Virus record (IMG/VR): IMGVR_UViG_3300025012_000049
Coordinates: 32,304-96,303 of that record
Strand: one strand, 5' to 3'
Length of the DNA: 64,000 nt
From: a virus
Shown here: positions 3,281-48,297 of the stretch, piece after piece
How positions within the stretch are numbered: position 1 is the first letter of the stretch
How the letters are laid out: each line of letters starts with the position of its first letter
Program-made: the position numbers and the translations under genes
The notes under the pieces: model-generated
The model's input: only the letters and a program-made list of their open reading frames with translations
What the model was told of the DNA's origin: nothing
The model's database searches: none

Positions 3281-3514
3281 ATGACAGATAGAGAACTGTT
3301 GGAGTTTATTTTGACAAAAGTTATAAATATTGAACAACAATTAACAGAAAGCAAAGCAGAACAAGAACGATACAAACAAAAATCCATAAGAATAAGGCAA
3401 CGAGCAAAATTGCAAATGGAGGCACAAATGAGCCATATGCCTCCAGCAATAAGACAAATAATGCAAGCAGCAATTCCTACAAATATAGATGATGAAGATG
3501 AAGGAGAAAACTAA
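3281..3514 (+). CDS. Hypothetical coiled-coil protein
   Basis: AAAGGA RBS; translationally coupled to next gene. Confidence 0.55.
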   Translation: MTDRELLEFILTKVINIEQQLTESKAEQERYKQKSIRIRQRAKLQMEAQMSHMPPAIRQIMQAAIPTNIDDEDEGEN

Positions 3515-4942: not shown

Positions 4943-5847
4943 TAAACAATATGAAAAAACTAATATTTAGAAATAAACGAGCAATAGGTGACAATTTAAT
5001 ATTTACCACCACAATTAGAGAATTACATAAACAATATCCACAACAACATCAAACAGGAATAGCAACATATTACCCCGAAGTTTATTATAATAATCAATTT
5101 ATTACCTTGTTTGATTTATATGATAAACACCAAAATATACCAATAATTGATATTGATTACGGAGATAATTTTCAGCATAGAAAAACTTCGGGAAAACATT
5201 TTGCAGAATTTTACATCAATGAAGTAAACAAAAAACTAAATTTAAACATTGAATTAACCGATTGTAGACCACACTTAACTATTACTGTAGAAGAAATAAC
5301 TAAAGCTAAAGAAATATTGGAAAAACAAAACATACCAGAAAAGTTTTGGTTATTATCACCAGCCATTAAACAAGATATACCGTTAAAAAATTATTCCGCA
5401 AAACGTTGGCAGGAATTTTGTAATCTGGCTAAAGAAAATAATATTAATATTGTGCAAACCGGAGATAGCACAGCACTTAATCCTTGTTTAAAAAATATAA
5501 TTTCTCTGGTTGGAAAATTAAATCTCAGAGAGTATTTTGCTGTTGCTTTATTATCAAGAGGAATGATTGGGCATGTGTCTTTACAAACTCATTTGGCGGC
5601 AGCTTTAAATAAACCCTGTATCACTGTTGCCGGTTCCAGAGAAGGAAATCACCTATATAGTTATCCAAAACAACATTATCTTCATTCTATTGGTTTCCTT
5701 GAATGCTGTAAAGAAACTGCTTGTTGGAAAAAAACCATTCAAGATTGTGAAAATTATGATTACCAAAAAGGTATTAGCGGTTGTATGCAATTAATTAACC
5801 CAAAACAAATTGTAGATATTGTTTTAAAGTATGAAGGAAGATACTAA
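4939..5847 (+). CDS. Glycosyltransferase family 9 (heptosyltransferase-like)
   Basis: AIGDNL, KNYSAKRW, SLVGKLNLRE and HLAAALNKP motifs typical of GT9. Confidence 0.8.
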   Translation: MINNMKKLIFRNKRAIGDNLIFTTTIRELHKQYPQQHQTGIATYYPEVYYNNQFITLFDLYDKHQNIPIIDIDYGDNFQHRKTSGKHFAEFYINEVNKKLNLNIELTDCRPHLTITVEEITKAKEILEKQNIPEKFWLLSPAIKQDIPLKNYSAKRWQEFCNLAKENNINIVQTGDSTALNPCLKNIISLVGKLNLREYFAVALLSRGMIGHVSLQTHLAAALNKPCITVAGSREGNHLYSYPKQHYLHSIGFLECCKETACWKKTIQDCENYDYQKGISGCMQLINPKQIVDIVLKYEGRY

Positions 5848-32209: not shown

Positions 32210-33163
32210 CTAAAAAGAAAATTTACGTCTGACTTTTTCCGTGGAAGCATCCAATTCTTTTTTAATCTCCCCCAATTGTTTATTAATGGTTTTAGTCAAT
32301 GCTTCATCATCTCTTAAATCTTTGGGAGTAACCCCTTTTACCACATTTTTTGCTTTGGTAATCAATGATTCCAATTCACTATCGTTAAATACGTTTTTAT
32401 TTTGGAACTCGTTGAAAAATTCCGTAACTTTATCAATAGAAGAAGCTCTTAGACGTTTTTCTTCACCATCTAATTTACCGGAAAGAGTATTAGTTAAATG
32501 AGTAACAATTTCTGCAAATCCTTCTCGCAAAGCTAATACCGCTTCCTTTTTAGCTTGTTGCATTAGGTCATTAAACCTTTTGGTTTCCTCTTCTCTAATT
32601 TCTTTGGTGATGCTGGATGGAACAGTCATTTCAAAGAAACGCCAATAGATACCAAACCGTTCTCTGATGTTTCTTGGATAATCAGCTTCATTGAATATTT
32701 CTTCATCCATATCAGCTTTAGCTTCACCAATAAATTCATCATATTGATTAGCAAACTCTTCAATTTTTACTTTCATTTCATCAAAGATACTAATTAAACC
32801 TGTATTTATTTTTTCAACAGTGCCTAGAGGAATAAAATAAATACCTTTAATTGGAAAGGGAAGAGCAACAGAGGTAATTAATTTTCTTGCTTCAGTAATA
32901 CAGAATTGAATATCTTCCAATTTTTTACGGTTGATAAGATTTTTATTGGCTTTCAACCAGCCATTTTCAAAATCTTTACCATATTTTTTAGCTTTATCTT
33001 TGGGGATTCTTTTAACTGCTTGCCAACAATGGGTTTCAAATTGAAGAAGGGTGCCTAGATTGAAAATATTGATTTCATTTGATTTACCAGTAGAAATTTT
33101 AGGTTTGCTTTTTTTATTTAATTTTAACCTGATTATTTTATTACTACTCTTACCCGTTTTCAT
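32210..33163 (-). CDS. DUF3150-like protein
   Basis: ALPF...GIYFIP...FANQYD...DYP...RF pattern; GGAGG RBS; own promoter; AAA-module context. Confidence 0.6.
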   Translation of the reverse strand: MKTGKSSNKIIRLKLNKKSKPKISTGKSNEINIFNLGTLLQFETHCWQAVKRIPKDKAKKYGKDFENGWLKANKNLINRKKLEDIQFCITEARKLITSVALPFPIKGIYFIPLGTVEKINTGLISIFDEMKVKIEEFANQYDEFIGEAKADMDEEIFNEADYPRNIRERFGIYWRFFEMTVPSSITKEIREEETKRFNDLMQQAKKEAVLALREGFAEIVTHLTNTLSGKLDGEEKRLRASSIDKVTEFFNEFQNKNVFNDSELESLITKAKNVVKGVTPKDLRDDEALTKTINKQLGEIKKELDASTEKVRRKFSF

Positions 33164-33198
33164 TTTTACCTCCAATCTTTGTAAGAAGGGGAATTTTC

Positions 33199-33719: not shown

Positions 33720-34353
33720 AATGTATTCTCCTTGTCAGTATTCTATTCTTTTTCCTTTCCTCTTCTTCCTGCTTGGTTTTTTCCAATAATTGTTTTTCTT
33801 TTAAGGTATGATAATACATATACAAATCGCCAGATATATTTTTTCCAATAAATTCAAAAGAATAATCCCCCTCATTTATACTTTCTATTTTTCCTTCTAA
33901 AGTAAAGGTTTTATTTTTGTTTGTGTTGTTTTTATCAGCAATCGTAAAACCAAGACGACCTTTTGCATATCTCAAAGAAGGTATTTTAAAATGGTCATTA
34001 TTATGTTCTATTGATACATTTATTTTTATTTGGTTTGTTACAATACTTTGTTTTATATCAGTTATTGTGCAATTTCTAAGAAAAACTCTATCTGAAGCAT
34101 ATGCTGGATTATTTTGAAATTTATAATTATTTTGAAATTTATGAAATACTGTTTCAACAATAGGTATAGTGATATCAACTTTTTTGTTTTTTCTTTGTTT
34201 AAATTTTTCTTTTATTTTCTGAATATCTTTTTGCTCTTTTGTTTCAGTTGTTGCAATATATGTAGTAGTTATTTTTGGAATCCCATAAATATCAAAAAGA
34301 GCATTTTCTAAATCATTGTCATCATCGTCATCAAAAGGATTTTGGACACTCAT
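33712..34353 (-). CDS. Hypothetical protein
   Basis: Acidic N-terminus; ends RILTRRIHFD. Confidence 0.5.
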   Translation of the reverse strand: MSVQNPFDDDDDNDLENALFDIYGIPKITTTYIATTETKEQKDIQKIKEKFKQRKNKKVDITIPIVETVFHKFQNNYKFQNNPAYASDRVFLRNCTITDIKQSIVTNQIKINVSIEHNNDHFKIPSLRYAKGRLGFTIADKNNTNKNKTFTLEGKIESINEGDYSFEFIGKNISGDLYMYYHTLKEKQLLEKTKQEEEERKKNRILTRRIHFD

Positions 34354-34359
34354 AATTGA

Positions 34360-34551
34360 TTACCTCTTAATAGTTACACCAGTTCCGATTTTCTCAGTTT
34401 CATAATATTCTGGTTTATGTTTTTTATTGGTGACTTTACCTAGTGCTTCTTCAATTTTCTTGGTTGCTTGTTCACAACTTATCCCTTTAAAATTTTGACC
34501 TTCAATTTGGATTTCTCCTTTTGGAGAAATTGTTATAATAATTTCCGGCAT
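34360..34551 (-). CDS. DUF2997-family protein
   Basis: ITISPKGEIQIEGQNFKGISCEQATKKIEEALG...KPEYY. Confidence 0.8.
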   Translation of the reverse strand: MPEIIITISPKGEIQIEGQNFKGISCEQATKKIEEALGKVTNKKHKPEYYETEKIGTGVTIKR

Positions 34552-34568
34552 ATTATTCTCCCTTTTGT

Positions 34569-34754
34569 CTATATATTTTCTTTAAAATATTTTGTTTTGT
34601 TCCCTTTGGTCGTTTCCATTGTTACTTCAAATGTGCCTGTTCCGCCTCTATCATCATTTATTTCAACACATAAAATTGATTCTGCTTTCAAATGTGTTTG
34701 TTCAAAATATTTAATTTGAGCTACAAACAATTGAGCTAAATCTTTTTTAGTCAT
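34569..34754 (-). CDS. Hypothetical protein
   Basis: AAAGGA RBS. Confidence 0.45.
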   Translation of the reverse strand: MTKKDLAQLFVAQIKYFEQTHLKAESILCVEINDDRGGTGTFEVTMETTKGNKTKYFKENI

Positions 34755-34771
34755 ATCACTTTATCCTTTCT

Positions 34772-35026
34772 TTATGAGAATAATTCCTGATTAAAGAATT
34801 CAATTTCAGCATTGATAGCATCTTCCCTTTTAACAAATGCCATAGGAAGACAGCAACCAGTATAAATGCCGTGTAGAATTGTGACAACCCATTTTTGAAT
34901 ATTTGCATTAAACTCAACTTCACTAACACGTTTTATTTCTTTTTTGCCTTCAAACTCAGAAAGAAAATCTGAGTACAAAGAATGAATTGTTCCATCTGGT
35001 TTAATTATTAGGTTTATTTCTTTCAT
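34772..35026 (-). CDS. Hypothetical protein of the AAA/DUF2997 module
   Basis: IKPDGTIHSLYSD...IKRVSEVE...REDAINAEIE. Confidence 0.55.
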   Translation of the reverse strand: MKEINLIIKPDGTIHSLYSDFLSEFEGKKEIKRVSEVEFNANIQKWVVTILHGIYTGCCLPMAFVKREDAINAEIEFFNQELFS

Positions 35027-35717
35027 TTTTAAATTTCTCCAATATATCCTCTTCTGTTAGATATCTAAAAACCCAGCCTTTATGTTGTTTATATTTCCCC
35101 AATAAACAATTGTTCAAACTTTTTCTGTTTAGTTTGTGTTCTTTAGAAAAATCAGATTGGTTTTTACTTTTGTATTTTTTTCCATTTGGAGAAAATGCTA
35201 TAAACCATTTATTTCTCCTTGTATTTTTTCCCTGTAGATTTTTTGGTATAAAAACACAATTAACAAAAGTGTAGTTATTATTACTATCTTTTCTTTCAAG
35301 GGTCAGGTAGTTTTTTTCTGTTATTTCTTTTCTATATACCTTTTTGGCATGAATATACTTAAAATACATATCTTTTTTAAACTCTAAAAAATCATTCCAT
35401 CTAGGATCATGAATTATACCTCTACCACCATAAAAAGGATAATCAAGGGTGTTTTTATTATTACATCTTCTTCGCATGGAAGACCAGTATTTATAAAGAA
35501 TATGTTTTGTTTCCCCATGCTTTTTGCTTAAATTTCCTCTGATTTCGCGTGTAAGACAACCACATGATTTTGTATGTCCATTTAACAAAGCATAAATTCT
35601 TACTGAACTTATTTTATTATTGTCACAAACACATACGCAGAGAAAATTATATGTTTTTGTTTTGTCTTTTTTTATTACTGTTAATCTCCCAAATTTCTTC
35701 CCTATAATATCATTCAT
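35001..35717 (-). CDS. Free-standing HNH-type homing endonuclease
   Basis: GKKFGRLTV, KSCGC, YGGRGI and TLERKDSNNNYTFVNC motifs; C-terminal DNA-binding domain. Confidence 0.8.
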   Translation of the reverse strand: MNDIIGKKFGRLTVIKKDKTKTYNFLCVCVCDNNKISSVRIYALLNGHTKSCGCLTREIRGNLSKKHGETKHILYKYWSSMRRRCNNKNTLDYPFYGGRGIIHDPRWNDFLEFKKDMYFKYIHAKKVYRKEITEKNYLTLERKDSNNNYTFVNCVFIPKNLQGKNTRRNKWFIAFSPNGKKYKSKNQSDFSKEHKLNRKSLNNCLLGKYKQHKGWVFRYLTEEDILEKFKNERNKPNN

Positions 35718-35719
35718 TT

Positions 35720-36106
35720 TTAATTTACCATTATTTTTAATTCAATAACTCCGTTTTCTTTTGTTTTTTCTGTAAAAATATATCCTTGCATTTTTGCCAC
35801 ATTTTTTGCAACTTCAACAGCATAAGTTTGTTTTAGTTTATTTGCATTTTCACCTAATACTTTTGATAAACCTCCAGAAGAATATGAGTCCCATTGAAGT
35901 ACATAATCATTATTCTCACCCTTAATTATGCCTAGATCAAAGGAACAATTAGGGAAAGAAGCAGCATGGAGGCATTTCCCTTTTCTTCCTGCATAATAAC
36001 TAAATTCAGTTTTATTTTTATGAAATGTGCCACCTAATTTTTTAACTGCTTTTTCCAAACAAGGAAGATTATTAACTTCAAGATTTATTTTACTGATATG
36101 ACTCAT
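35720..36106 (-). CDS. DUF1257 (Ycf35-like) protein
   Basis: MSHISKI...LEKAVKKLG...LQWD...LKQTYA. Confidence 0.75.
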   Translation of the reverse strand: MSHISKINLEVNNLPCLEKAVKKLGGTFHKNKTEFSYYAGRKGKCLHAASFPNCSFDLGIIKGENNDYVLQWDSYSSGGLSKVLGENANKLKQTYAVEVAKNVAKMQGYIFTEKTKENGVIELKIMVN

Positions 36107-36108
36107 GA

Positions 36109-36391
36109 TTACACCTCTTTCTTTTTAAGTTCAAATTCTTCTACTTTTCTATTAAGTAGTTCCCATAATTCATTACTTGCATCATTATTTTCTGTATCAA
36201 AAAAAGCTTTCCATAGTTCTTTATCTTCTTGCTTAATAAAAGAATCTAAATCTTCTTTAAAAGGTTCAAAACTTGAATTAAATCTAAGCCACAACTCAAC
36301 CAAGTCTAATTCATTCTCTACATTAATAGTAATAGCAAAAGGTTTAAATTTGGTTTTTTTTTTCAACCACTTTGATTTCTTTCACTTTCAT
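36109..36391 (-). pseudogene. Paralog of 36407..36688 with a frameshift in an A10 tract
   Basis: RBS and ATG 36391 give MKVKEIKVVEKK; removing one A from the A10 run restores frame into TKFKPFAI...LDLVELW. Confidence 0.65.
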
Positions 36392-36406
36392 TTTATTTAT
36401 CCTTTC

Positions 36407-36688
36407 TTATTCATCTTCTTCGTCACCATAATTATCCATCTCATATTCTATAACTTTTTTGTTTAAAATATCCCAAATCTCTTTTGGTCCTTTATTCATT
36501 TTTGAAACCTTAAAAGACTCAGCATACTCAAGTTTAAATTTATCATCTATAGCACGAAAAAGTGTGTCTTTTTCTTGGTTAAATAAAGCCCAAAGCTCTA
36601 CTAAATCTAGTTCTTTTTCAATATCAATATTAATAGCAAAAGGTTTAAATTTTTTCTCTTCAATAATTTCTATCTTTTTCACTTTCAT
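36407..36688 (-). CDS. Hypothetical protein (tandem duplicate family)
   Basis: MKVKKIEIIEEKKFKPFAI...LDLVELW. Confidence 0.6.
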   Translation of the reverse strand: MKVKKIEIIEEKKFKPFAINIDIEKELDLVELWALFNQEKDTLFRAIDDKFKLEYAESFKVSKMNKGPKEIWDILNKKVIEYEMDNYGDEEDE

Positions 36689-36693
36689 TTTAT

Positions 36694-36945
36694 TTATCCT
36701 TTCTTATCTTCAAATCGTAGGAAAACAACATCAATTAACTTCTTGCCAAGATACAAACCCAAAGGAATAAATAAACTATTTGCCAAGGGATTTTCCCAAA
36801 TGGATTTATCCACCACTACATAATGTTTATTTAACCCTTCTATTGCTTTAGTATTTATCCAGAAATTAAATAAAAGCCAACTACCAATAACTACTACAAT
36901 CAAAAAAGAATAAAACAAATATCTAGTATACTTCATAATTATCAA
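36694..36945 (-). CDS. Small membrane protein
   Basis: Two hydrophobic segments. Confidence 0.5.
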   Translation of the reverse strand: MIIMKYTRYLFYSFLIVVVIGSWLLFNFWINTKAIEGLNKHYVVVDKSIWENPLANSLFIPLGLYLGKKLIDVVFLRFEDKKG

Positions 36946-37144
36946 CCATATCTTTATTAACAGCTTCTCGAAGATTGGCTAATACCATTCGATCATGTAA
37001 AGTATCTTCCATAGCATAACGTTTAATATGCTCACATTGAATCTTTTTACAAAGCAATGTATTAGGGCTGATTTCACCATCCTCACTTAAACATAACCCT
37101 TGTGCATTTATTTGACATTCATAAACTACACATTTGATTTTCAT
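36923..37144 (-). CDS. Cys-rich small protein
   Basis: KC...EC..N..G.C...C; AAAGGAG RBS. Confidence 0.5.
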   Translation of the reverse strand: MKIKCVVYECQINAQGLCLSEDGEISPNTLLCKKIQCEHIKRYAMEDTLHDRMVLANLREAVNKDMVDNYEVY

Positions 37145-37157
37145 TTTATTTCTCCTT

Positions 37158-38957
37158 TCAATTCAATTTAAGTTTCCTACCCCCAACAGCCTTGTTATCG
37201 GTTTTAGGTTTCAATTGAATCTTTTTCCTAATTGCACCATCTTTACTACTAGCAGCACGGAACTGTTTAGCTTTCTTTCTGATTTCATCCATATCATCTT
37301 TTCGGAAATCTGCCAATAAAGGAATATTATTCATAGCAGTTTCCAAATCATCGAAATGAGAATCTTTAGCCAATTGTTCAATTTCTGCACCTGTCCATTG
37401 TTCCTCAGCTAATTCTTTACAGAATTCTTCATTTACTGGTAGTTTTGCATGATAACGTCTATTCATAATTTCAAGGATAAATTTAATTTCATTGGCATTA
37501 GGAGTATCTACAAACCATAGAGAATCCCACCTACCTGAACGCATAAATTCAACAGGTAATTTTGATAAATCATTTGCCGTGGCTACAATAATACCGTCTG
37601 ATGTACGATCATTCAACCATGTAAGAATTGTACCAAATAAACCTTGACTAACTCCTGAATCAAGATTTTGTCCTCCTGCTCCTGCAAGCGCTTTATCCAC
37701 CTCCAAATGTTACGGAATAACCGTTTCCGTTATTCCTCTTATAGTTTCCTATAAGTTCAGACTATATCTTTAATTACCTTTTATTTCGGCAATTACTCCC
37801 CATTTCGGATTCACTTGAATCCTACTCCGTATGGATAGTCGTTGAACCTTCACCATTTTAAAGGTGCTTGGCTGCTGATTGCCCAATCCAATCAATTCTC
37901 AAACATTCACGCTTACTGTTTCCAGTTACGTTGTAGTTTGATTGGCTCTAAGGGGTTTCCAGCAATTAAGGGAGTTTTAGATCGACAAGGTTGCTTTTTT
38001 ATCGATCAGAATGATTGCCTTGCCGAACGCATCAATTGTTTTACAAGCTAATCTTACATTTTTTTCTGTCTCCCCAACAATACCACCTTTCATTGCTCCA
38101 ATGTCTAATTGAATAAGCGGCCAATCAAAAATTGATGCTAAGCATTTAGCAGAAAGTGACTTACCCGTCCCGCTTAATCCGGCAAGAAGTAATGAACGCA
38201 ATTTTGGTTTATTACTACCATCAACAAAAGCTTCCTTTCTTTTGAAGACATATTCTTTCAATTTATCCAAACCACCAAGATTTTCAATTGGTTCAGGATT
38301 CATAAAATCCATAAATCCAGTGGATTTTATAATTTGTCGTTTCCTGTCAAGAATAGATTTAATATCAAATCGTTTATATTCAATCAATGACAGGGATAAA
38401 GCATTTTCAATTTCTTCATTGGATAATCCAAGACAGGCAGAAATAACTTCATCAGAATAGGAAAAATCAAATTGATCTTTTACCTTTTCATAATTTTCAG
38501 ATTGTTTAAAATCTTCTTCTGCTGATTTAGAAATGGTACTGACAATCAGTTTTACTTCTTCCTTATCAGGTAAATTAAATTGAATAATAGGAATAAGTTC
38601 TTTAAGAACAGTTGGAATTTTATTAGGGGTATGACCGACAATTACCAAACAAACTTGATTAGCTTTACACAATTCATAATTATTCAGGAACATTTGAATA
38701 ATTGTAGGATTTTCTAAAAAGAAATCATAATTTTCCAGAATGATTGCTTTTTGTTGTAATTCAGTTGCTTTCTGAAGAATAGATAGTTGGTCAGCATCTT
38801 CTGATTGACTATCAATGGTTAAACCTGAAACCATATTCCATTCAATTTTTTCAAATGGTGGTTTTACCGTAATGGATTTAACTGCACGTTTAATTTCTAA
38901 TGCTTCTACATATAGTGCAGCATATCCAGCGGAAAGATATTTACTAATATCTGACAT
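37158..38957 (-). CDS. Ycf46-like AAA+ ATPase, join(38001..38957, 37158..37703), about 500 aa after splicing
   Basis: Walker A GLSGTGKS; Walker B ILID/EVDK restored by splicing; ATAN sensor; PVEFMRSGRWD arginine finger. Confidence 0.9.
37704..38000 (-). ncRNA. Group I self-splicing intron (297 nt, no ORF)
   Basis: P AATTGCTGGAAA, Q AATCAGCAG, R GTTCAACGACTA, S AAGATATAGTCT; exon ends in U, intron ends in G; IGS TTGTCGAT pairs the 5' exon ATCGAT and ACCTT pairs the 3' exon GAGGT. Confidence 0.93.
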
Positions 38958-38977
38958 TTTGTTTCTCCTTTCTTTGA

Positions 38978-39172
38978 TTAAGAGTCTTTTCTATGATTAT
39001 AATATGTTTCCAAGTTGTATAATCTCCTACGTATTTCATTTTTAAACAAATTAAATTCATCACCAAAATAAAGTAAACTATCAAGCAAATTGCGATAGAA
39101 TTTAATAGCTTCATCTAATTCACTATCAGATAGTATACCGTCATTAATTTTCTCCATTAATTCTCTTGTCAT
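38978..39172 (-). CDS. Hypothetical protein
   Basis: AAAGGAG RBS, ATG 39172. Confidence 0.55.
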   Translation of the reverse strand: MTRELMEKINDGILSDSELDEAIKFYRNLLDSLLYFGDEFNLFKNEIRRRLYNLETYYNHRKDS

Positions 39173-39192
39173 TTTATTTCTCCTTTCTTTGG

Positions 39193-39429
39193 TTAAAAGT
39201 CTTTCGGATAAATCCAAATCATATTACTTGCTCTTGGTTCAATAGTAATTGAATCACCACCAGAAATTTCAATCACATCCTTTTTATCCCTTTGCAATAA
39301 CATTACACTTATTTTTTTTCTATTATTTTCTTTATCAAACACAAAATGGATATTAGTTCTTTCTGCCAAAAATATTTTGTCACTTTTCAAATCCCAAGGA
39401 GAAGTAAGATAAATATTGCTTTCTTCCAT
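39193..39429 (-). CDS. Hypothetical protein
   Basis: ITIEPRASN motif; coding strand. Confidence 0.45.
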   Translation of the reverse strand: MEESNIYLTSPWDLKSDKIFLAERTNIHFVFDKENNRKKISVMLLQRDKKDVIEISGGDSITIEPRASNMIWIYPKDF

Positions 39430-39548
39430 TTCACCCCTATAAAATTTAATTTTTTTTCCAATACAGTTATTTTATTATTTAATTTTTCCAACTCCTCCCG
39501 CACCCATTTAGGTAATTTATTAATATCTTCATTTGCTTTTCTACTCAT
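39387..39548 (-). CDS. Hypothetical small protein
   Basis: AAAGGAG RBS, ATG 39548; KLPKWVR motif. Confidence 0.45.
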   Translation of the reverse strand: MSRKANEDINKLPKWVREELEKLNNKITVLEKKLNFIGVKWKKAIFILLLLGI

Positions 39549-39549
39549 T

Positions 39550-39834
39550 TTATTTCTCCTTTCTTTGGTAATTAAAATCAATAATATGTCTTTTTCCTTT
39601 TGGGTAGATAAAACGCATAATAAAAATACCCTTTCCCTTTTCAACAAGATTATCTAATTTTCTACATTGTTTAATAGCTGATTTAAAAGTTTTACAATTT
39701 CTATGTGAAGAATAACCTTTGTGGTTTTCTTCACCATATTTGGGATCATCCATAAGTAACCATTTTTTATATTTATGACAATACATTACAGAATCAAAAC
39801 AACCAACTAAATAACGTATATTTTTTCCTTTCAT
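39550..39834 (-). CDS. Hypothetical protein
   Basis: AAGGAG RBS. Confidence 0.5.
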   Translation of the reverse strand: MKGKNIRYLVGCFDSVMYCHKYKKWLLMDDPKYGEENHKGYSSHRNCKTFKSAIKQCRKLDNLVEKGKGIFIMRFIYPKGKRHIIDFNYQRKEK

Positions 39835-39838
39835 ATTT

Positions 39839-40036
39839 TTATTTCTCCTTTCTGCCAGCGTAAAAACCAGCCATAAAGATATATTCCAATTGTTTGTTTT
39901 TATCCATGATGTTTAAATGATCTTTATTCATTTTAAAGAAATATTCTTTAGCTTTAAATCCTTGTTGATAATCATCCAATGTCAAATTTTCCTCTTTATA
40001 TTTTATTTTTAAATTATACCTTTTGAATTTATTCAT
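39839..40036 (-). CDS. Hypothetical protein
   Basis: ATGA overlap with the polymerase C-part. Confidence 0.5.
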   Translation of the reverse strand: MNKFKRYNLKIKYKEENLTLDDYQQGFKAKEYFFKMNKDHLNIMDKNKQLEYIFMAGFYAGRKEK

Positions 40037-42258
40037 ACATATTTAAACTCCCAATCTTTTAATTGATATGGTTTATCTTCTTTATCTTTTTTACCAGCTA
40101 ATATTTTAGCAATTAAACCAGTATCCATTCCCATTACCTCAGTAAAACCATGTAAGAATTTCTCTTTGAATACTTCTTCACTAGGTATATGTCTTGCTTC
40201 AAATAATTTATTTTCCAATTTTAAATCCAGCCAATTACTATCTGACAGCTCCCATTCTGCTTCCAACTTAACCTTTCCTAACCATTTAAACATGGGTTTG
40301 ATAGTCATACAACCTTCAACCAAATCCATGACTTGTTCAGCTTCATTTTTAAAGATATTGAAATAACCAGAGTCATGAATCTGACCAACAACTTTACTTC
40401 TCAAATCTAATTCTCGCATTTTGTTTTCTGTTTCAATCAAGGAATGTAGCAGCAAATGAAATGAGGTTGATTGTATTGGAAAATTAATAATCTCATTACG
40501 TTTCATTGGATAACGTCTTCTGAAGCCCAATGGATTTTCCACATAACCTAAATCATAATAACTATCAACAATCCATTTTTGCCATTCTTCCACACCACTA
40601 TAACGTTTATAAAAAACTTTTTGGCATTCAGTAATGTGTTGTTCTGAATAATCCTTAAAGAAATCACTCCAAGATTTATCAAATCCTTTTACCTGTTTGG
40701 CTTTTTGAAAAGCTTTCTTTACATATTCTACATAGAAATCAGATTTCCTGAATTCCTCTGCCATGGAAATTGAACTGGCACCAAACAAATTAGCAAAAGT
40801 AAAATTATTCTTGGCAAGAAATCTTTCATCCTTATGGGTTGCTTTTATTTCATCGACTGATTTGTTAATACCAAAAATAACTCCTGCCCAATGGGAATGT
40901 TGGTCATAACCATTATTTAAATCTTCAATTAATTGGTCGTCTTCTGATATAGCGGCAGCTACTTTAACTTCAGCACCAACATAATCGACCTCTCCAAGCA
41001 TCCCCTCTTGGAGATTTAATTGATAATTCCCACATTGATACTGTTTATAAAATTCAATTCTGGTAAAAATTTTTCTGATATTATGCCAAGGAACACCATT
41101 AATAATATCACCATGTTTTGGTATGGTGTTATGTACCACAATATTGTTTGCTACAAAAGAGTGTGAATCTTCAATTGTTAAATCAAAAGTCTCACACTCA
41201 CCGGCAGGAATAATACTTACAATTTCTTTTTCTTCAAACGCTTGTAAGTTGGCCGATACATTTTCATTAATGCTTCCCTCATTGATAAACCAATTGATAG
41301 ACGGTAATGAAATCTCCCTGTTGATATGCCATACTCTCTTGCCCAATCTGCCAATGATTGTGTTTTTCCTAAATAAGTTAAAAGTCTTTTTACTCTTCGA
41401 TTGTCTGCTTGCATTTTTGGGGTTGCCCAACAACAATTCTTTGGTGAATAATTGCCATTTACATTTATTCGTTCTATTGACCAACCCTTTTCTGGTTTTT
41501 CTCCCATATCTTTTAGAAAAAATCTGAATTTGTGCCATCTTGTGCAAACTTTTATTCCTCTTCCCCCGTATCGTGGATAATCTTTGCTTGTTTTGCTGTT
41601 GCATCTGTTTTTCATTGCTGCCCAACTGTAATAAGTTGGGCTTGTATAATTCTTTGTTCTGTGACCTAAACTCATAACAAATATCTCCTTTAAGTAATTG
41701 GTCTGTACGAACCCATCCACGTTTTGTTAGATATGGATGATTTTCCGTACTTGTTACCATATTACCACTTTCAGAAGATACGGCAAACACCTTTTTTATT
41801 CCATTACGATACACACCAATAATTTTTTTCCAAGAACCATCATGAGTAAGAACTTCAAATTGTTCATTATTTTCATATCTTTTTACAATTTCCTCAATTG
41901 CAATATTTCCTTTATTTGTTAATACTAATACACCCCCTTTAAGGCATTGGAAGAGAGTAGCAGAACTTCTATATGTACGAGTAGAATGCAACCAAAAATC
42001 AGTATGAAAGAAAATATCTGATTCATTAGCAATAAGTCTACGAAAACCTTTCACATAGGTATTCTTGGCTTTTTTCAATTTTCTTGCATTAATCAATAAT
42101 TTACAAAACTCAACATTTTCCTTTTCTGCGTAATGTAACAATACATCTTCTGCTACCGAATAATTACCCTTATCATTTTTCCCTTTAGTTGGTTTCAATT
42201 CAAGAAATTCAAAGAGAAATTGCTGCATTTGTACAGGGCTGGCAATATTGAAAATCAT
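40033..42258 (-). CDS. Family A DNA polymerase, C-terminal (polymerase) part, intein-containing
   Basis: FNIASPVQ, RSS..FQ/TIP, motif A EVDYVGAEVK, motif B RFLAKNNFTFANLFG, NFPIQST, motif C QIHDS. Confidence 0.9.
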   Translation of the reverse strand: MIFNIASPVQMQQFLFEFLELKPTKGKNDKGNYSVAEDVLLHYAEKENVEFCKLLINARKLKKAKNTYVKGFRRLIANESDIFFHTDFWLHSTRTYRSSATLFQCLKGGVLVLTNKGNIAIEEIVKRYENNEQFEVLTHDGSWKKIIGVYRNGIKKVFAVSSESGNMVTSTENHPYLTKRGWVRTDQLLKGDICYEFRSQNKELYKPNLLQLGSNEKQMQQQNKQRLSTIRGKRNKSLHKMAQIQIFSKRYGRKTRKGLVNRTNKCKWQLFTKELLLGNPKNASRQSKSKKTFNLFRKNTIIGRLGKRVWHINREISLPSINWFINEGSINENVSANLQAFEEKEIVSIIPAGECETFDLTIEDSHSFVANNIVVHNTIPKHGDIINGVPWHNIRKIFTRIEFYKQYQCGNYQLNLQEGMLGEVDYVGAEVKVAAAISEDDQLIEDLNNGYDQHSHWAGVIFGINKSVDEIKATHKDERFLAKNNFTFANLFGASSISMAEEFRKSDFYVEYVKKAFQKAKQVKGFDKSWSDFFKDYSEQHITECQKVFYKRYSGVEEWQKWIVDSYYDLGYVENPLGFRRRYPMKRNEIINFPIQSTSFHLLLHSLIETENKMRELDLRSKVVGQIHDSGYFNIFKNEAEQVMDLVEGCMTIKPMFKWLGKVKLEAEWELSDSNWLDLKLENKLFEARHIPSEEVFKEKFLHGFTEVMGMDTGLIAKILAGKKDKEDKPYQLKDWEFKYV
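41128..41946 (-). mobile_element. Intein (273 aa) in the DNA polymerase
   Basis: Starts CLKGGVLVLT; block B STENHPY; ends TFDLTIEDSHSFVANNIVVHN/T; exteins join as SSATLFQ-TIPKHG. Confidence 0.92.
41217..41675 (-). CDS. HNH homing endonuclease nested out of frame within the intein
   Basis: AAAGGAG RBS before ATG 41675; TYYSWAAMKNRC, YGGRGIKVC, SIERINVNGNYSPKNCCWAT; C-terminal HTH-like segment. Confidence 0.88.
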   Translation of the reverse strand: MSLGHRTKNYTSPTYYSWAAMKNRCNSKTSKDYPRYGGRGIKVCTRWHKFRFFLKDMGEKPEKGWSIERINVNGNYSPKNCCWATPKMQADNRRVKRLLTYLGKTQSLADWAREYGISTGRFHYRLSIGLSMREALMKMYRPTYKRLKKKKL

Positions 42259-42614
42259 GATGATACACCCAATCTTTTAACAATTTTATTTTCAAAAACA
42301 GTATATTTAAAACCAAATAATGTATCCTCTATTGAATAAGTCCAACACATGCCATCATACTCTGGTTCTTCCATTATTTCATAAATCAAATCAGAATTTG
42401 GCATGTTATGTATTTTAATAATATCTCCTTTTTTAAATTCAGGTTCCGTTTTTTTCCAGTTTTTATCTTCTTGAAAATGAATATTATCAATTAATCCATT
42501 TTTATTATCTCTACATTGACATGGTTCAAAAGTTATTTTAATTTCTTGTGTTTTATTTTCAACACTATATTTTAATTCTTGTAAGCAAAAAGGGCATTCA
42601 ACTATCAGTCTCAT
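42255..42614 (-). CDS. Hypothetical protein (zinc ribbon + SH3-like)
   Basis: CPFC...PCQC; FKKGDII; coupled to the polymerase C-part. Confidence 0.5.
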   Translation of the reverse strand: MRLIVECPFCLQELKYSVENKTQEIKITFEPCQCRDNKNGLIDNIHFQEDKNWKKTEPEFKKGDIIKIHNMPNSDLIYEIMEEPEYDGMCWTYSIEDTLFGFKYTVFENKIVKRLGVSS

Positions 42615-42615
42615 G

Positions 42616-43593
42616 TTATTTACTCCTTAAAGAAATACGTTTTGGTTTAGTTCTTTTCAATTTGTATCTTTTTGGTAATGTTGATGGAATTTCTAAATAA
42701 TCAAGAACTTTTTGTATTCCAAGATTCTCCATACAATATTTATGTAATTGTGGGTGTATTTTTCTCATTATATGAAATCTATTAATTTTTTCCATATGAA
42801 TGCCAAACATACAAAACATACAGCCAGTTCTTCCAATTCCTTTTTTATAAATATCTGCATAAGGTAAATTATTTGTATGGATGTATTTCCAAATGTCTTT
42901 TTCTGTAAAAATAGACAATGGTTTACTTTGTGGTTTGTTTAGTGTGAAACTATTGCATCCATATTCTTTCCATTGACCCAAACGAACACCACTATCATCG
43001 GTCATTGTCCCTATATATGGTTTTCTATTTGTTTGTTTTTCATATATATATATAGGTTTCTTTTTTATCCAGTCACAACAGTATTCACTTATTTTAAATG
43101 GTGCTATTAATAGTTTATGCCACTTATCAGACAACTTAGCTCTCTGTTTATATACACCTTTATTCCATCCAGTTAAATGATATTTGCTAATATTTGAATT
43201 GGGATTGTGTCTTATTTTCCTTATTCTTAAAGAAACTTCTTTACTTATTACTGGATAACCATATTCTTCAATTACTTGTTTGAAATTCTTTTTAGGTTTA
43301 ACCCACATAACATTATCAAATGTTTTAACAAACTCTCTGATTTCAGGCCATTCAAGACCAGTATCAGAAAATACAGCAGGAACATCTGGATAAATTTGTC
43401 TAACCAAATGCAATAAAACTGTTGAATCTTTTCCACCAGAAAAAGAAACATATACATTTCCATTCCAATATTCATACCACTCTTTGATTTTCTCTTGTGC
43501 ATAAAGTACCTTTGTTTCTAATGATAAAGATTGTAAAAGTTTTAAATCTTGGTATGTTCTTTTTTGTTTTCTTTTTAGTTTGTGTTTTATCAT
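42616..43593 (-). CDS. PAPS-reductase-family (PP-loop, Fe-S) protein
   Basis: SFSGGKDS, DTGLE, CC and RTGCMFC motifs. Confidence 0.85.
   Translation of the reverse strand: MIKHKLKRKQKRTYQDLKLLQSLSLETKVLYAQEKIKEWYEYWNGNVYVSFSGGKDSTVLLHLVRQIYPDVPAVFSDTGLEWPEIREFVKTFDNVMWVKPKKNFKQVIEEYGYPVISKEVSLRIRKIRHNPNSNISKYHLTGWNKGVYKQRAKLSDKWHKLLIAPFKISEYCCDWIKKKPIYIYEKQTNRKPYIGTMTDDSGVRLGQWKEYGCNSFTLNKPQSKPLSIFTEKDIWKYIHTNNLPYADIYKKGIGRTGCMFCMFGIHMEKINRFHIMRKIHPQLHKYCMENLGIQKVLDYLEIPSTLPKRYKLKRTKPKRISLRSK
42623..42648. repeat. 26-bp direct repeat, copy 2 (copy 1 at 43775..43800)
   Basis: CTCCTTAAAGAAATACGTTTTGGTTT identical at both sites. Confidence 0.85.
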
Positions 43594-43766
43594 ACAATTA
43601 TATCTTCTACTCTTAAAATATCACAAGTATCAAAGGTTAAATTGTACCCTTTAATTGTTCTTACATATAAATTATCTTCATTTCCATCCAACAGCAACTC
43701 ACAAATAAACTCATCATTATTATTCATGATTACTTTAAATTTTAATTGTTCCATAAGTTTTTCCAT
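43590..43766 (-). CDS. Small hypothetical protein (58 aa, not in ORF track)
   Basis: AAGGAG RBS; MEKLMEQLKFKVIM...; ATGA overlap with the PAPS-like gene. Confidence 0.55.
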   Translation of the reverse strand: MEKLMEQLKFKVIMNNNDEFICELLLDGNEDNLYVRTIKGYNLTFDTCDILRVEDIIV

Positions 43767-43767
43767 C

Positions 43768-45390
43768 TTATCTTCTCCTTAAAGAAATACGTTTTGGTTT
43801 TTCAAAACATAAAGATTGTAAATCTTTTTCCTCTTTCTTCTTTTTAGTCTTTCCTGTTTTGTTCTCAAGGTATTTGTTAAACTCAATAACTTCAGGCATT
43901 GATTCAATTTCTGCTTCAATTCGTTCTATTTCTTTATCCAGAAACTTTTCAAATTCATTCAATTCCTGTTCACCAATATTGATTCCCCTTTGGGTCATAT
44001 CAGCAAACAACATATGACCATCATATAAGAATTCATAATTTTCCTTGGCTTTGGGATATATATCAAATAAGTCTTTTCGAAACAATAAAAAATTATTAAA
44101 TGTAGTGATAACGTCTAAAGCATTGTATTGAATCATATCTTCTTTTGGTGCTTCTCGAATCTTATTTACTTTTTCAAAGGTATAGTTACCAACATCATCA
44201 TTATCTTCCTCTTCTGAATCATTATCTTCTTTATCAATGGATTTTTTACTGGTTTCCAAATATTTCTTAATAGTCTCATTATATGGTGGAATTCCAAACC
44301 TTACCAAGTTCTGAAAATCCAAGGAAGTACAACCTTCCCGCTCATCAATAACATGGGTTGCCAACATGGTACAAAACATATTTTCAATTCTTTTAATTTT
44401 AAAAATAAACCGACTGGCTAAATCTTCAAATTTACTATTTTGAATAACTTTACAAATATTTTTATTGGTTAGTAATTTCTGCATTTGCAAATGAAACCAT
44501 ATTTCTATTTTCTTATCCTTCTTCCAAAAATCCTCATGGAATACCCATGCACTTTGCTTATTAGCAAAGGCAATATAGATTATTTCAAAGTAATGGTCAT
44601 AAGGAAACAGATTAGTGGTTTCATAGTCTAAAGCAATCTCTTTACATTGGTTCCATAAATTAAATAATTGCTTGGCTTCTTTTACTGTTTTAACTTCGGT
44701 AATAGTTATACCTTCAAGTATTTTCCGTTCCTGCAATATTTTTTTGACTTCGGTACGTTTGTAGGCAATTTTATTCCAAAACTTAAAAATTCTTTCCAAG
44801 TCACGTTTGTAAGTATGTTGATAATAATAATTCAATTCATCAATACCGTTTTTCTTACTATACATTTCCCGATTGTAAGGATCATAAACTGGAAATACCA
44901 AACAATTATATTCATAATTAGGTATAATTCTATTTCTAAGTTTGGAAATGGCATATTTATTTTTCAGGTTGAATAAATATTTAAATGCCATTTCACCACA
45001 ACAAATAATCAATTTAGGTTTTAACTCTTTAAGACGTGCATCCAAAATACTTTGACAGCATTTAAAATGTGTATCCGAGGTTTTCTTTTTGGAAGGATTA
45101 TAGCAAGAGACAGCATGAAGCATTGCCGATTGTTTGGCTAGATTGATACCAAATTTAATAGCAATACTTCTGAGAATTTTAGATCGTGAATCAGCAAATG
45201 GTTTGCCTTTTTCATCATCTTCTTTGGATACCTTTTGGCCCAATATAATTAATCCATCATATTGTGGTCCTTGATATATTTCCAATACTGGATTATCAAT
45301 CTTATTATTTTTCAAACCACATTTATTACAATCAAATTTTGAATTGTTAGTTTTTTTATTTAATGATGGTATTGGAAAATAAAAAGACAT
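43768..45390 (-). CDS. Family A DNA polymerase, N-terminal part: UDG-like domain + 3'-5' exonuclease
   Basis: CNKC...GKPF...SC...C family 4 UDG-like pattern; Exo I LDYETT, Exo II QNSKFE, Exo III YNALD; MTQRGI. Confidence 0.85.
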   Translation of the reverse strand: MSFYFPIPSLNKKTNNSKFDCNKCGLKNNKIDNPVLEIYQGPQYDGLIILGQKVSKEDDEKGKPFADSRSKILRSIAIKFGINLAKQSAMLHAVSCYNPSKKKTSDTHFKCCQSILDARLKELKPKLIICCGEMAFKYLFNLKNKYAISKLRNRIIPNYEYNCLVFPVYDPYNREMYSKKNGIDELNYYYQHTYKRDLERIFKFWNKIAYKRTEVKKILQERKILEGITITEVKTVKEAKQLFNLWNQCKEIALDYETTNLFPYDHYFEIIYIAFANKQSAWVFHEDFWKKDKKIEIWFHLQMQKLLTNKNICKVIQNSKFEDLASRFIFKIKRIENMFCTMLATHVIDEREGCTSLDFQNLVRFGIPPYNETIKKYLETSKKSIDKEDNDSEEEDNDDVGNYTFEKVNKIREAPKEDMIQYNALDVITTFNNFLLFRKDLFDIYPKAKENYEFLYDGHMLFADMTQRGINIGEQELNEFEKFLDKEIERIEAEIESMPEVIEFNKYLENKTGKTKKKKEEKDLQSLCFEKPKRISLRRR

Positions 45391-45414
45391 TATATTAATT
45401 CCTTAGTTAATTAA

Positions 45415-45501
45415 TGGTGGGAGCGGCGGATCACGATCCCGCAATCCTCAAGGGCGACGGCTTTTAAGGCCGTAGTGTATTTCCAGTTCCACCACGCTCC
45501 C
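45415..45501 (-). tRNA. tRNA-Leu (anticodon TAA), encoded CCA
   Basis: GGGAGCG/CGCTCCC acceptor; ACGGC-CTTAAAA-GCCGT anticodon arm; long variable arm; atypical T-loop. Confidence 0.85.
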
Positions 45502-45515
45502 ATATTTATTTAAAT

Positions 45516-45728
45516 TTAATCAAGGCAAGGTTTAAAGCCAATAATTCTTGGTTCCTGATTTTCTCTTATTTCTTTTAAATTAACCTTGGTAACTCCCACC
45601 GCTTTTATTTCATCATTATCAATACATTCAATTAGATCAGCCACAATCATTTTAGCTCTAATTCTAGCATCAACATCATCAACGGCAATAACGGGAATAT
45701 AAACCTGCAACATATAATTCTTATCCAT
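45516..45728 (-). CDS. Hypothetical protein between tRNAs
   Basis: AAAGGA RBS. Confidence 0.5.
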   Translation of the reverse strand: MDKNYMLQVYIPVIAVDDVDARIRAKMIVADLIECIDNDEIKAVGVTKVNLKEIRENQEPRIIGFKPCLD

Positions 45729-45749
45729 TTATATTCATCCTTTATTTAA

Positions 45750-45825
45750 TGGTGGACCTGACAGGACTTGAACCTGTAACAATTCCGTTATGAGCGGAGA
45801 GATCTGCCAGTTGATCTACAGGTCC
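45750..45825 (-). tRNA. tRNA with CAT anticodon, probably Ile2 (lysidine-modified)
   Basis: GGACCTG/CAGGTCC acceptor with C4-G69 and C5-G68; CTCATAA loop; TTCAAGT T-loop; CCA. Confidence 0.85.
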
Positions 45826-45835
45826 ATTATAATAA

Positions 45836-45867
45836 GGGGGTTTATATCTTGGGCAATATAAACCCCC
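45836..45867 (-). terminator. Terminator/processing hairpin upstream of the tRNAs
   Basis: GGGGGTTTATAT...ATATAAACCCCC. Confidence 0.55.
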
Positions 45868-45952
45868 ATTCTCCCTTTCTTTTCCGATTTATGTCGTAGT
45901 TAATTTATCGACCCATATATTTAATAACTCCTTTCAATTTATTTAATAGGAA

Positions 45953-47521
45953 TTATTCTCCCATAGCAGCTTCAACTACAGCTACCATTTGTTTAACCAG
46001 TTTCTTAATTTCAAATTTATTCTTACCACGTTCCGTAAGAATTGGTGTAACAGCCTTTACAATATCACTTTCATCTTCTCCGGCCTCAACCATTTCTTCG
46101 ACAATTTGGAAAAGAGATTTAGATTCTTCACCTTTATCAATCCCCTTGGCTTTTTCCTTCTTACCTTTCTCTTCCTTGCCTTTTTTCTTGGATTCCTTGG
46201 GAAGTACGGCCAAAATCTTTTCAGCCATTTTATCAACCGATTTCTTTTCCAGAATACCCAATTTAATATTGAGTACAGCACACATTTCTTTTAGGGTTTC
46301 TTTATCTTCTGCTTCAACAGCATCATTAACTGCTTCCTCAGTAATATCCAATTCAGCAGTTTCTTCTACTTCCTCTTCAGCTTCTTCTGCTTCACTGGAC
46401 TCCAAACGATCCAACATTTCTTTTTTCAGTTTCTTAACATCTTCCCGATAAGGTGATTTACCACGACCAGAGCGGAAAGAAATACCTTTAAACAATTCAG
46501 GATTATCTTCCTTAACTGAATCGGCAACTTCTTTCAAACTCTCTGCATCATCAGCTTCATTGATTGCTTCAATCAATTCAGCATAATCATTTTCTTCTTC
46601 TTTGGCCTTTTTCCCTTTTCCTTTTGACACTTCTTTTTCAACTTTTTCCTTTTTGCCCTTAGCTGGTTTTTCTTCCTCAACTTCTTTAGCTTTTTTACCC
46701 TTAACCTTGTCTACAATTTTCTTAGCACTTTTTTCAATTACTTCTTTTGCTTCCATTTGTCCTTCTTCATACTCATCAATTGCTGCAAGCATGGCTTTTT
46801 TCAATTTCTTTACCAATTTAGTATCAGTATCAATTTCACTGAAGATTTCTTCATAATCTTCATCTTGTGCCAATTCAACCAATTCATCAATTTCTGTAGC
46901 TTCATCAATAGCTTCACGCAATTCGGAAAAATCAGCTTCTTCCTTTTCTTCTTCCTTTTCTTCTTCCTTTTCAGCTTTACCTTTTTTACCTTTAGCCGGT
47001 TTTTCATCTTCTTCAATTGCATCAGCTTCATCAAACAATTCATCAGGAAGATCATCATACCATTCCGTAAATTCATCCGAATAAGCTTTTTCAGCATCAA
47101 TATTCTTCAGAATTTCCAGAGTCAATTCATCTTCATCCAAATTTTTGATTTTCTTTGCATCAAGACCAACTTCCTTAGCGAATTCCTTGAGTTGTTTCAG
47201 TTCCATGATTAATTCTCCTGTATTAATTTTGTAGGCTAGAAATAATTTATTCGCAACCTCAATCTCTTCCTTGGTAGCAATTGCGAGTTTGCTACTAAGC
47301 ACTATCTTGACCAATTCAAAATACTGAACAGCCTTAACGCATCGCAAAACCTCCTTTCGTAAATATTTATGCTGCATCCCATGTAGAATACCTTTTTCCT
47401 TATTGGTAAGGCCAAAGTCAGCCATACCCATATTAATCCATTTATACCGTCGCCACCGTTGCGCAAGGGTATATAAATAAACTTTCCAAACAGGTAGTTT
47501 TACTTTATGGTGTTTTTTCAT
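45953..47521 (-). CDS. Large acidic repeat protein (HeH/SAP-like helical modules, E/K linkers); second start likely near 47207
   Basis: Very D/E/K-rich; repeated LKE...L...IL modules and KPAKGKK linkers; CAGGAG RBS before internal MELKQL. Confidence 0.65.
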   Translation of the reverse strand: MKKHHKVKLPVWKVYLYTLAQRWRRYKWINMGMADFGLTNKEKGILHGMQHKYLRKEVLRCVKAVQYFELVKIVLSSKLAIATKEEIEVANKLFLAYKINTGELIMELKQLKEFAKEVGLDAKKIKNLDEDELTLEILKNIDAEKAYSDEFTEWYDDLPDELFDEADAIEEDEKPAKGKKGKAEKEEEKEEEKEEADFSELREAIDEATEIDELVELAQDEDYEEIFSEIDTDTKLVKKLKKAMLAAIDEYEEGQMEAKEVIEKSAKKIVDKVKGKKAKEVEEEKPAKGKKEKVEKEVSKGKGKKAKEEENDYAELIEAINEADDAESLKEVADSVKEDNPELFKGISFRSGRGKSPYREDVKKLKKEMLDRLESSEAEEAEEEVEETAELDITEEAVNDAVEAEDKETLKEMCAVLNIKLGILEKKSVDKMAEKILAVLPKESKKKGKEEKGKKEKAKGIDKGEESKSLFQIVEEMVEAGEDESDIVKAVTPILTERGKNKFEIKKLVKQMVAVVEAAMGE

Positions 47522-47761
47522 TTAAACTTTGAGTTTTTTTAAAATTTGTTCTTCAATTATTTTTCTAGATAATTTCATCACAACATCATAGATTTCTTCA
47601 TCATCTTCAATTGCATTTCTAACAATATTTTCAATTGCTTTTGTGAAATTTTTAACTTCAATATCATCAATTGCTTGTATTAGTTTTTCTTTTAATTTGT
47701 TCTGAATTTCTGGATCATCTTTAAAAATAATAAATAGACTCTCCTCAACACTTTTGCTCAT
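47522..47761 (-). CDS. Hypothetical protein
   Basis: AAAGGAG RBS. Confidence 0.5.
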   Translation of the reverse strand: MSKSVEESLFIIFKDDPEIQNKLKEKLIQAIDDIEVKNFTKAIENIVRNAIEDDEEIYDVVMKLSRKIIEEQILKKLKV

Positions 47762-48297
47762 GATTTATTCTCCTTTCTTTGTTTAAATCTATCAAAACCT
47801 CTATTCCATTCAAGTACTAAATCACCAGCAGAATATTTATTAGGCAAACCTTTTAAACCTGTTTGATATGCTTCTTCTAAAGCTTTATCGGTAAATTTTG
47901 GTGGTGTGTTTCTCCTTTTTAAATTTAATCTCATTTTATTTGGTTTTGGATGATAACCTTCAATACCAATATGGGGATATTTTGTAGCTGGTATTTTAGC
48001 AGCTATTTCCTGTACTTTCTTTTTTCCTAAATATTGTTCACAAATCTTCTTCCATGAAATATTGGTTCTTTTAAAAATCCATTTCCAACACCATGAAAAC
48101 GTTTTACCTTGGTCAATTAATTCAAGATATTCTTTCTCCCTTCTGTCAATAACCTCATTGACTTCTTTCAGTTGTTGCTCTAATTGTTTTCTTTGTTCAA
48201 ACAGTTCAAGGAATTGCCGATGCTCAGGATTTAATTTTTGATATTCTGCTTTAGAAATGTGTTTGACGGTTCCTTCAGGGTAAGGATTGAATTTCAA
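47758..48297 (-). CDS. Hypothetical protein
   Basis: Likely TTG start 48297 after AAAGGAG, downstream of promoter. Confidence 0.55.
   Translation of the reverse strand: MKFNPYPEGTVKHISKAEYQKLNPEHRQFLELFEQRKQLEQQLKEVNEVIDRREKEYLELIDQGKTFSWCWKWIFKRTNISWKKICEQYLGKKKVQEIAAKIPATKYPHIGIEGYHPKPNKMRLNLKRRNTPPKFTDKALEEAYQTGLKGLPNKYSAGDLVLEWNRGFDRFKQRKENKS

Follow-up and report, generated by a model that had tools for sequence, protein, structure and literature searches.

The interrupted ATPase gene

The window, that is the whole stretch of 64,000 nucleotides analysed here, comprises bases 32304-96303 of a virus record from an uncultured groundwater phage. On its minus strand two open reading frames, of 326 codons (38957..37977) and 182 codons (37706..37158), follow one another with an RNA-like spacer between them. 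A preliminary description of this DNA had listed the same two frames, at 37977..38957 and 37158..37706, and had read them as the exons of a single AAA ATPase gene split by a group I intron. The gene is made up of the following parts:

38001..38957, minus strand: exon 1, 319 codons (ORF list, PF00004 match, alignment to full-length homologues)
37704..38000, minus strand: ORF-less group I intron of IA type, with P7.1 and P7.2 present and P2 absent, 297 nt (RF00028 match, fold, empty allele)
37158..37703, minus strand: exon 2, 181 codons plus stop (PF00004 match, homologue alignment)

Exon 1 encodes the N-terminal domain, the Walker A motif (GLSGTGKS) and the Walker B motif as far as its aspartate (..ILID), and closes with the codons CTG ATC GAT, the final T of which lies at position 38001. 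Exon 2 opens at 37703 with GAG, the codon of the Walker B glutamate (EVDK..), and continues through sensor 1 and the Arg-finger region (..SGRWD..) to the C-terminal lid. The insertion, in phase 0, separates the Walker B codon for Asp from that for Glu, and the joined exons give a computed product of 319 + 181 = 500 residues; both the position of the junction and a length of about 500 residues had been anticipated in the preliminary description. On the Pfam model PF00004, exon 1 (residues 256-319) aligns with positions 1-64 and exceeds the cut-off with 37.5 bits, whereas exon 2 aligns with positions 65-129 and, taken alone, stays under the cut-off of 21.2 with 18.1 bits; the exons are therefore two halves of one AAA domain. 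Walker A, a Walker B of the form hhhhDE and the second region of homology all fall within this one classic AAA domain (PF00004), which is also present in the full-length homologues, and the DE pair of Walker B is complete only once the exons are joined.

Most homologues are single proteins. The intron-less ones, of 490-507 aa, run continuously across the junction when aligned with the window protein, a comparison that the preliminary description had proposed as a check; the protein P0002 (74% identity), for example, reads ..LIDEVEKALAG.. at this point. These motifs and alignments place the product, with its roughly 500 aa, in the classic clade of AAA ATPases. Its homologues in cultured phages reach only about 30% identity and are annotated 'AAA-ATPase'. 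The label 'Ycf46-like' goes back to a JGI COG-type name, 'SpoVK/Ycf46/Vps4 family', and to full-length alignment at about 32% identity with widespread 490-aa proteins (e.g. P0112) which do not themselves carry the name Ycf46. With the intron-less P0002 as a stand-in for the query, no NCBIfam model was reached at its cut-off, so that no curated model confirms the label, the best match being CDC48 with 68.6 bits against a required 802.

Family and fold of the intron

The spacer and its immediate flank (38035..37738) match the Rfam group I model RF00028 with 89.2 bits (E 1.8e-21) over model positions 1-253 of 253, the gathering score being 50 bits. The covariance-model search proposed in the preliminary description has thus returned the expected family at full model length, and the 297-nt ORF-less intron that it had placed at 37704-38000 has exactly these boundaries. 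Nowhere else in the 96,303-bp virus record does RF00028 match, and a permissive Rfam scan of 34000-48000, including the gap in the split polymerase gene, yielded no second intron. The minimum-free-energy (MFE) fold has -90.9 kcal/mol, with z = -5.28 relative to shuffled sequences, none of the 100 shuffles equalling it. The conserved elements P, Q, R and S were found in this order, as had been claimed, and can be located along the intron as follows:

37836..37967, minus strand: P4-P6 domain and 5' strand of P7 (cmscan alignment, RNAalifold)
37967-37959, minus strand: element P
37955-37888, minus strand: P5/P5a/P5b
37880-37871, minus strand: element Q
37871-37847, minus strand: P6/P6a
37847-37836, minus strand: element R
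37704..37835, minus strand: 3' half of the intron (RF00028 alignment, MFE fold, compensatory changes)
37835-37826, minus strand: P7.1 (MFE fold)
37822-37807, minus strand: P7.2 (MFE fold; covaries in L093, a related locus described below)
37801-37796, minus strand: 3' strand of P3
37795-37771, minus strand: P8
37770-37760, minus strand: element S with the 3' strand of P7
37755-37738, minus strand: P9
37736-37714, minus strand: P9.1
up to 37704, minus strand: intron tail, with the terminal G at 37704

P7.1 and P7.2, two hairpins that follow P7 and precede the 3' strand of P3, place the intron in subgroup IA, the usual type among group I introns of phages. The call is made at the level of IA (IA2-like), with IA1, IA2 and IA3 taken together. 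An RNAalifold consensus of six related compact introns has compensatory changes on both sides in 25 of its 48 pairs, which backs the helices P4, P5, P5a, P5b, P6, P9 and P9.1. Along these lines, an alignment with the introns of two related loci, L093 and L012 (alignment A4, judged by eye and with no formal count), contains two-strand changes that preserve pairing in P3, P5a, P5b, P7, P7.2, P8 and P9. A gene for an intron-encoded homing endonuclease is absent, the gene-strand ORFs of at least 40 aa amounting to a single 41-codon frame across the core. Some group I introns require protein cofactors in vivo.

Splice sites and the proposed splicing pathway

The elements that define the two splice sites and the guide are these:

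38001..38007, minus strand: exon strand of P1, GAUCGAU, its final U at 38001 forming the U.G pair at the 5' splice site
37980..37991, minus strand: internal guide sequence; intron nt 10-14 are the P10 strand ACCUU, nt 15-21 the P1 strand GUCGAUC
37977..37979, minus strand: UAA, the eighth intron codon and the first stop in frame, directly 3' of the P1 strand
37699..37703, minus strand: exon strand of P10, GAGGU; the intron-less allele has A as the third base and would lose this pair

P1 has 7 bp, formed by the last seven exon bases and intron nt 15-21 with the U.G pair included, and P10 has 5 bp, formed by the first five bases of exon 2 and intron nt 10-14, while the last intron base is G (37704). 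A 5' exon ending in U, an intron ending in G and an internal guide able to form both helices had all been described beforehand, and all are borne out at the level of single bases.

Taken together, the locus is best explained by a functional, ORF-less, self-splicing group I intron of IA type in the mRNA of a phage AAA ATPase, a reading that can be held with high confidence. Direct support comes from the match to the RNA family, from the fold and the precise boundaries, from the covariation of guide and exon, and from the polymorphism between alleles with and without the intron; catalysis itself is what we infer from these. In the transcript, the end of the 5' exon would pair with the guide to form P1, with U.G at the splice site, and an external guanosine would then cleave at the 5' splice site. 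The guide would hold the 3' exon by means of P10, the terminal G marking the second cut, and ligation of GAT to GAG would restore the Walker B sequence ..ILIDE.. within an ATPase of 500 aa. Without splicing, translation would stop 8 codons into the intron; the predicted product of unspliced RNA is a fragment of 326 aa that ends in ..ILIDKKATLSI and is devoid of the catalytic Glu, sensor 1 and the Arg finger. That ATP hydrolysis would depend on splicing can thus be soundly argued from the position of the interruption.

The intron-less allele

An empty site is provided by the metagenome contig L039 (Ga0209727_1033197), which carries the ATPase gene without the intron, exactly 297 nt being missing. 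It covers residues 286-319 of exon 1 and all of exon 2, with 96% DNA identity to the window exons and one residue differing from the window protein. The base identities at the four edges are such that no shift of the intron boundaries is possible. The joined form also occurs in Logan contigs of two DNA sequencing runs from groundwater metagenomes, X1 and X3, as a joint of 37700 to 38010, in which 309 nt are skipped and 12 nt lie between, for a net loss of 297. Both runs contain the intron form as well, and the intron-plus and intron-less alleles therefore share one habitat. A second variant of the intron was met in X1 and X3 at depths of 12.8 and 3.5; it consists of a 174-nt contig corresponding to window positions 37799-37970, with 14 differences and 2 gaps. 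As a separate observation, unrelated contigs that have the P6-P7 core in common reach a depth of about 2,000 in X3, so that the aquifer community is rich in other group I introns.

Window and L039 exons differ at 24 positions. Synonymous changes account for 23 of these, which places the interrupted gene under purifying selection. Five of the 24 lie no more than 11 nt from the junction (binomial P = 0.001). Guide pairing in the intron-less allele would be broken by no fewer than two of these five, the one at -7 (P1) and the third base of exon 2 (P10). On the side of exon 1, the synonymous differences from the intron-less allele at -7 and -4 lie inside the P1 strand and that at -9 just 5' of it.

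These comparisons bear on the idea that the intron is a decayed, non-splicing relic and that the ATPase gene is dead or reduced to its truncated product. The absence of an endonuclease gene would suit such a relic, being the stage before decay in the usual life cycle of a homing element. Against it, all core elements score over the full length of RF00028, and P1 and P10 are intact, with exon codons that differ from those of the intron-less allele synonymously and toward pairing. Both exons are also open, with the excess of synonymous differences just given, and by contig depth, a rough measure, the intron form is the more frequent one (about 10-17 versus about 3.9-6.5 for the joined form in X1 and X3). 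A relic is accordingly considered very improbable, and an intron that still splices remains the preferred reading.

Homologous introns at the same Walker B site

Walker B is interrupted at the same point in other uncultured phages. The locus L012 (IMGVR_UViG_3300025012_000067, a contig of about 98.7 kb; L002 and L085 are the same locus) encodes an ATPase with 66-73% protein identity to that of the window, and a 935-nt intron sits at the same D|E point, in phase 0. Its core is 86% identical to that of the window intron when an insert of about 640 nt in the P8 loop is set aside. This insert carries the gene of a 195-aa HNH endonuclease (L012:4259-4846; PF01844, E 2.8e-7), whose last codons extend into P8, P7 and P9. 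A more distant host gene, that of L093 (IMGVR_UViG_3300015214_000031; 46% protein identity in exon 2), holds an ORF-less intron of 310 nt at the same D|E point and in phase 0, with 75% intron identity to the window and with a compensatory variant of P7 (alignment A4).

The exon ends of both loci differ from those of the window, and their guides are changed to match. The exon/guide pairs of P1 are ATACTGGAT/GTTCAGTAT in L012 and CGTGGAT/GTTCACG in L093, corresponding to 9 and 7 bp, respectively, and P10 has 7 bp in L012 and 3 bp in L093. In both cases the intron core is closer to that of the window than are the flanking exons (86% versus 70-78% for L012, 75% versus 59-64% for L093), a pattern compatible both with horizontal spread and with strong constraint acting on the ribozyme.

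Further intron-bearing alleles are suggested by protein ends and starts, on which their assignment is based. The proteins P0009, P0014 and P0043 end one or two residues past the Walker B aspartate and P0125 and P0126 start exactly at the Walker B glutamate, so that all five probably derive from such alleles. As judged from these sequences, the Walker B site is occupied in several related uncultured phages and not in the window genome alone.

As to detection, Rfam at the gathering threshold gave no matches in nine viral loci, and a search with a permissive E-value still missed the introns of L012 and of L020, a further locus treated below, probably as a result of their large ORF inserts. These two introns were assigned by blastn alignment to the window intron together with P1/P10 pairing. 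From its relatives the window intron would appear to belong to a mobile lineage, with mobility in the past; the window copy would either never have carried an HNH gene or have lost it.

It is against this background that a naturally split ATPase has to be weighed, in which the two ORFs would be separate genes and the RNA-like spacer incidental. Gene callers do split the ATPase gene in several public data sets, giving products of about 312-326 aa and 173-195 aa (P0009, P0014, P0043, P0124, P0125 and P0126). The break, on the other hand, lies between adjacent codons of one catalytic motif, and the spacer is a full-length match to RF00028. The only start codon available to exon 2 is a TTG made by the last three bases of the intron. 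Most homologues, moreover, are single proteins of 490-507 aa, and L039, whose protein is identical to that of the window but for one residue in the region covered, is without exactly this spacer. Two naturally separate genes had been named in the preliminary description as a possible finding in homologues; in L012 and L093, the DNA of which was read, homologous introns were found at this point instead. The probability of a split ATPase is practically negligible, and with a single, intron-interrupted gene as the preferred reading the two ORFs should be merged into one gene in the annotation.

Other insertions and a mosaic tract in the ATPase gene

The same ATPase family is also interrupted elsewhere. 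In L020 the Arg finger is the site of a different group I intron (4078-4886), which follows ..LRAGR in phase 1 and has a 7-bp P1 (GGACGGU/GCCGUCC), a 5-bp P10 (GGGAU/AUCCU) and an HNH ORF at 4329-4838. In a further locus, L016, the ATPase homologue is a 773-aa ORF (2998-5319) that includes an intein of about 270 aa within Walker A, bounded as GVPG|CLTGDT...IVHN|SGKS and with an HNH-like motif inside. A side observation concerns P0006 (283 aa, from a 1384-bp contig), a near-copy of the L012 exon-1 protein that diverges from the family after ..AIISIF and has only 7 residues more. This may reflect an assembly artefact, or else one more insertion site, located between Walker A and Walker B.

The closest intron-less relative of the window protein is P0001, encoded by locus L011, in which QLEE replaces the LIDE of Walker B. 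The two proteins are 98% identical outside and 71% identical inside a 150-residue tract centred on the intron site. At the DNA level this mosaic tract of about 450 nt (L011:3700-4200 compared with window 37480-38230) is the only part in which identity drops, from about 90-100% to 63-78%. Within the tract the window is nearest to P0002 and P0001 is nearest to P0003, and therefore at least one of them has exchanged a segment. Such an exchange would be the expected trace of endonuclease-driven repair at a homing site, and these affinities fit either direction. L039 has the tract of window type without the intron, and tract and intron are therefore not strictly linked. Two more specific scenarios were considered. 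Co-conversion with L012 as donor was rejected, the flanking exons of the window being no closer to L012 near the site, and the arrival of the divergent tract together with the intron is weakened by L039, in which the tract is present and the intron absent.

It might further be asked whether the intron, taken as real and splicing, is kept for a use, either as a gate on the ATPase that is sensitive to GTP or to translation, or as a shield of the site from the HNH enzymes of co-infecting phages. In favour of such a use are the occurrence of intron-plus and intron-less alleles together in the same groundwater samples, the HNH endonuclease encoded by the sister intron of L012, and the tract and QLEE sequence of L011/P0001, which would be expected if the site were a focus of cleavage-driven recombination. 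The same observations are equally expected of a purely selfish element. The direction of recombination, as just noted, does not emerge from the affinities of the two tracts, and L039 loosens the link between tract and intron. A useful intron is thus regarded as unlikely. Much the same holds for a wider, conflict-based reading, which is offered here only tentatively and with the chances against it: the ATPase gene may be an arena between co-occurring phages, in which homing elements hit Walker A (intein), Walker B (intron) and the Arg finger (intron), the ORF-less intron would persist since an occupied site is immune to the HNH enzymes of relatives, and the polymorphism and the 450-nt tract would be the traces.

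Genomic neighbourhood

The ATPase gene lies in the replication block of the phage, with helicases, exonucleases, a UvsX-like recombinase and PolA nearby. A free-standing HNH gene (35001-35717, minus strand; phrog_374, E 3e-42) is located 1.4 kb downstream of it, with five small ORFs (73-128 aa) in between. Searched against Pfam, its protein did not reach the HNH model and gave no Pfam match. As a candidate for the lost endonuclease of the intron it was rejected, having no similarity to the HNH protein of the L012 intron.

Also downstream of the ATPase gene are a weak match to DUF1257 (Ycf35-like; window 35720-36106, minus strand; 21.9 bits against a cut-off of 22.2) and a DUF3150 protein (window 32210-33175, minus strand; 39.7 bits). 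In L016 the same DUF1257-like gene follows the ATPase (5323-5700). A co-located DUF1257/DUF3150 module near the ATPase is thereby confirmed in part.

Several further features of the block deserve mention in their own right. PolA is split in two ORFs, the first comprising a UDG-like part and the 3'-5' exonuclease (43768-45390, minus strand), the second the polymerase domain (40033-42258, minus strand), and a gene with a PAPS-reductase domain (PF01507; 42616-43593, minus strand) lies between the two. Just upstream of the N-terminal ORF are phage tRNA genes for Leu (anticodon TAA, 45415-45501) and Met (anticodon CAT, 45750-45825), both on the minus strand. The ORF of the polymerase domain contains an intein (PF14890, residues 113-377) at ..RSSATLFQ|C...HN|TIPKHG. 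The PolA gene of L016 (492-2241) has, at essentially the same point, a group I intron (L016:798-1162; RF00028, 70 bits). Thus intein and intron share one conserved site in sister genomes.

Comparison with known systems and significance

Group I introns of IA type are established in a number of phage genes, including td, nrdB and nrdD of T4, the DNA polymerase genes of SPO1/SP82, orf142 of Twort and the polymerase gene of Pf-WMP3. The window intron has in common with them the P/Q/R/S elements, the P7.1/P7.2 hairpins and the J8/7 sequence. Like them it sits in a conserved gene of the replication module, at a catalytic motif, with an early in-frame stop after the 5' splice site, exists in ORF-less and HNH-bearing versions, and is distributed sporadically among close relatives. 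In a search with the DNA, only the intron core was common to the window and many cultured phages (Serratia, Pseudomonas phiKZ-like, Staphylococcus, Bacillus and the crAss-like cr118_1). The difference lies in the host gene, which is a classic-clade AAA ATPase rather than a gene of nucleotide metabolism, a polymerase, a terminase or a lysin; the literature searched, the coverage of which is incomplete, yielded no account of an intron in this family of ATPases. The intron is thus typical of the IA introns of phages in its structure, in where it is placed and in its natural history, and only the host gene is new.

The DNA polymerase intron of cyanophage Pf-WMP3 is accompanied by a nicking HNH enzyme, I-PfoP3I (PMC3428280). 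Introns that are ORF-less or defunct can home in trans with the help of free-standing endonucleases, as described for mobE and I-TevIII of T4 (PMC2790892). The window resembles the T4 case in combining an ORF-less intron with a nearby free-standing HNH gene, and departs from it in that this HNH protein is unrelated to that of the L012 intron and is encoded 1.4 kb from the ATPase gene. The replication genes of crAss-like phages, finally, are dense in group I introns and inteins (Yutin et al. 2021, PMC7886860). The window phage is likewise uncultured, with a genome of about 100 kb and with intron- and intein-dense replication genes, and its PolA, UvsX-like recombinase and helicases do not settle crAss-like status.

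With this locus a classic-clade AAA ATPase joins the phage genes known as hosts of group I introns, in support of the rule that such elements settle in the most conserved catalytic codons. For an uncultured phage the system is unusually complete, comprising alleles with the intron and, from the same samples, alleles exactly without it, an HNH-bearing sister intron at the same site, and a second intron and an intein at other motifs of the gene. It would permit a direct test of homing, of site immunity and of the co-evolution of guide and exon.
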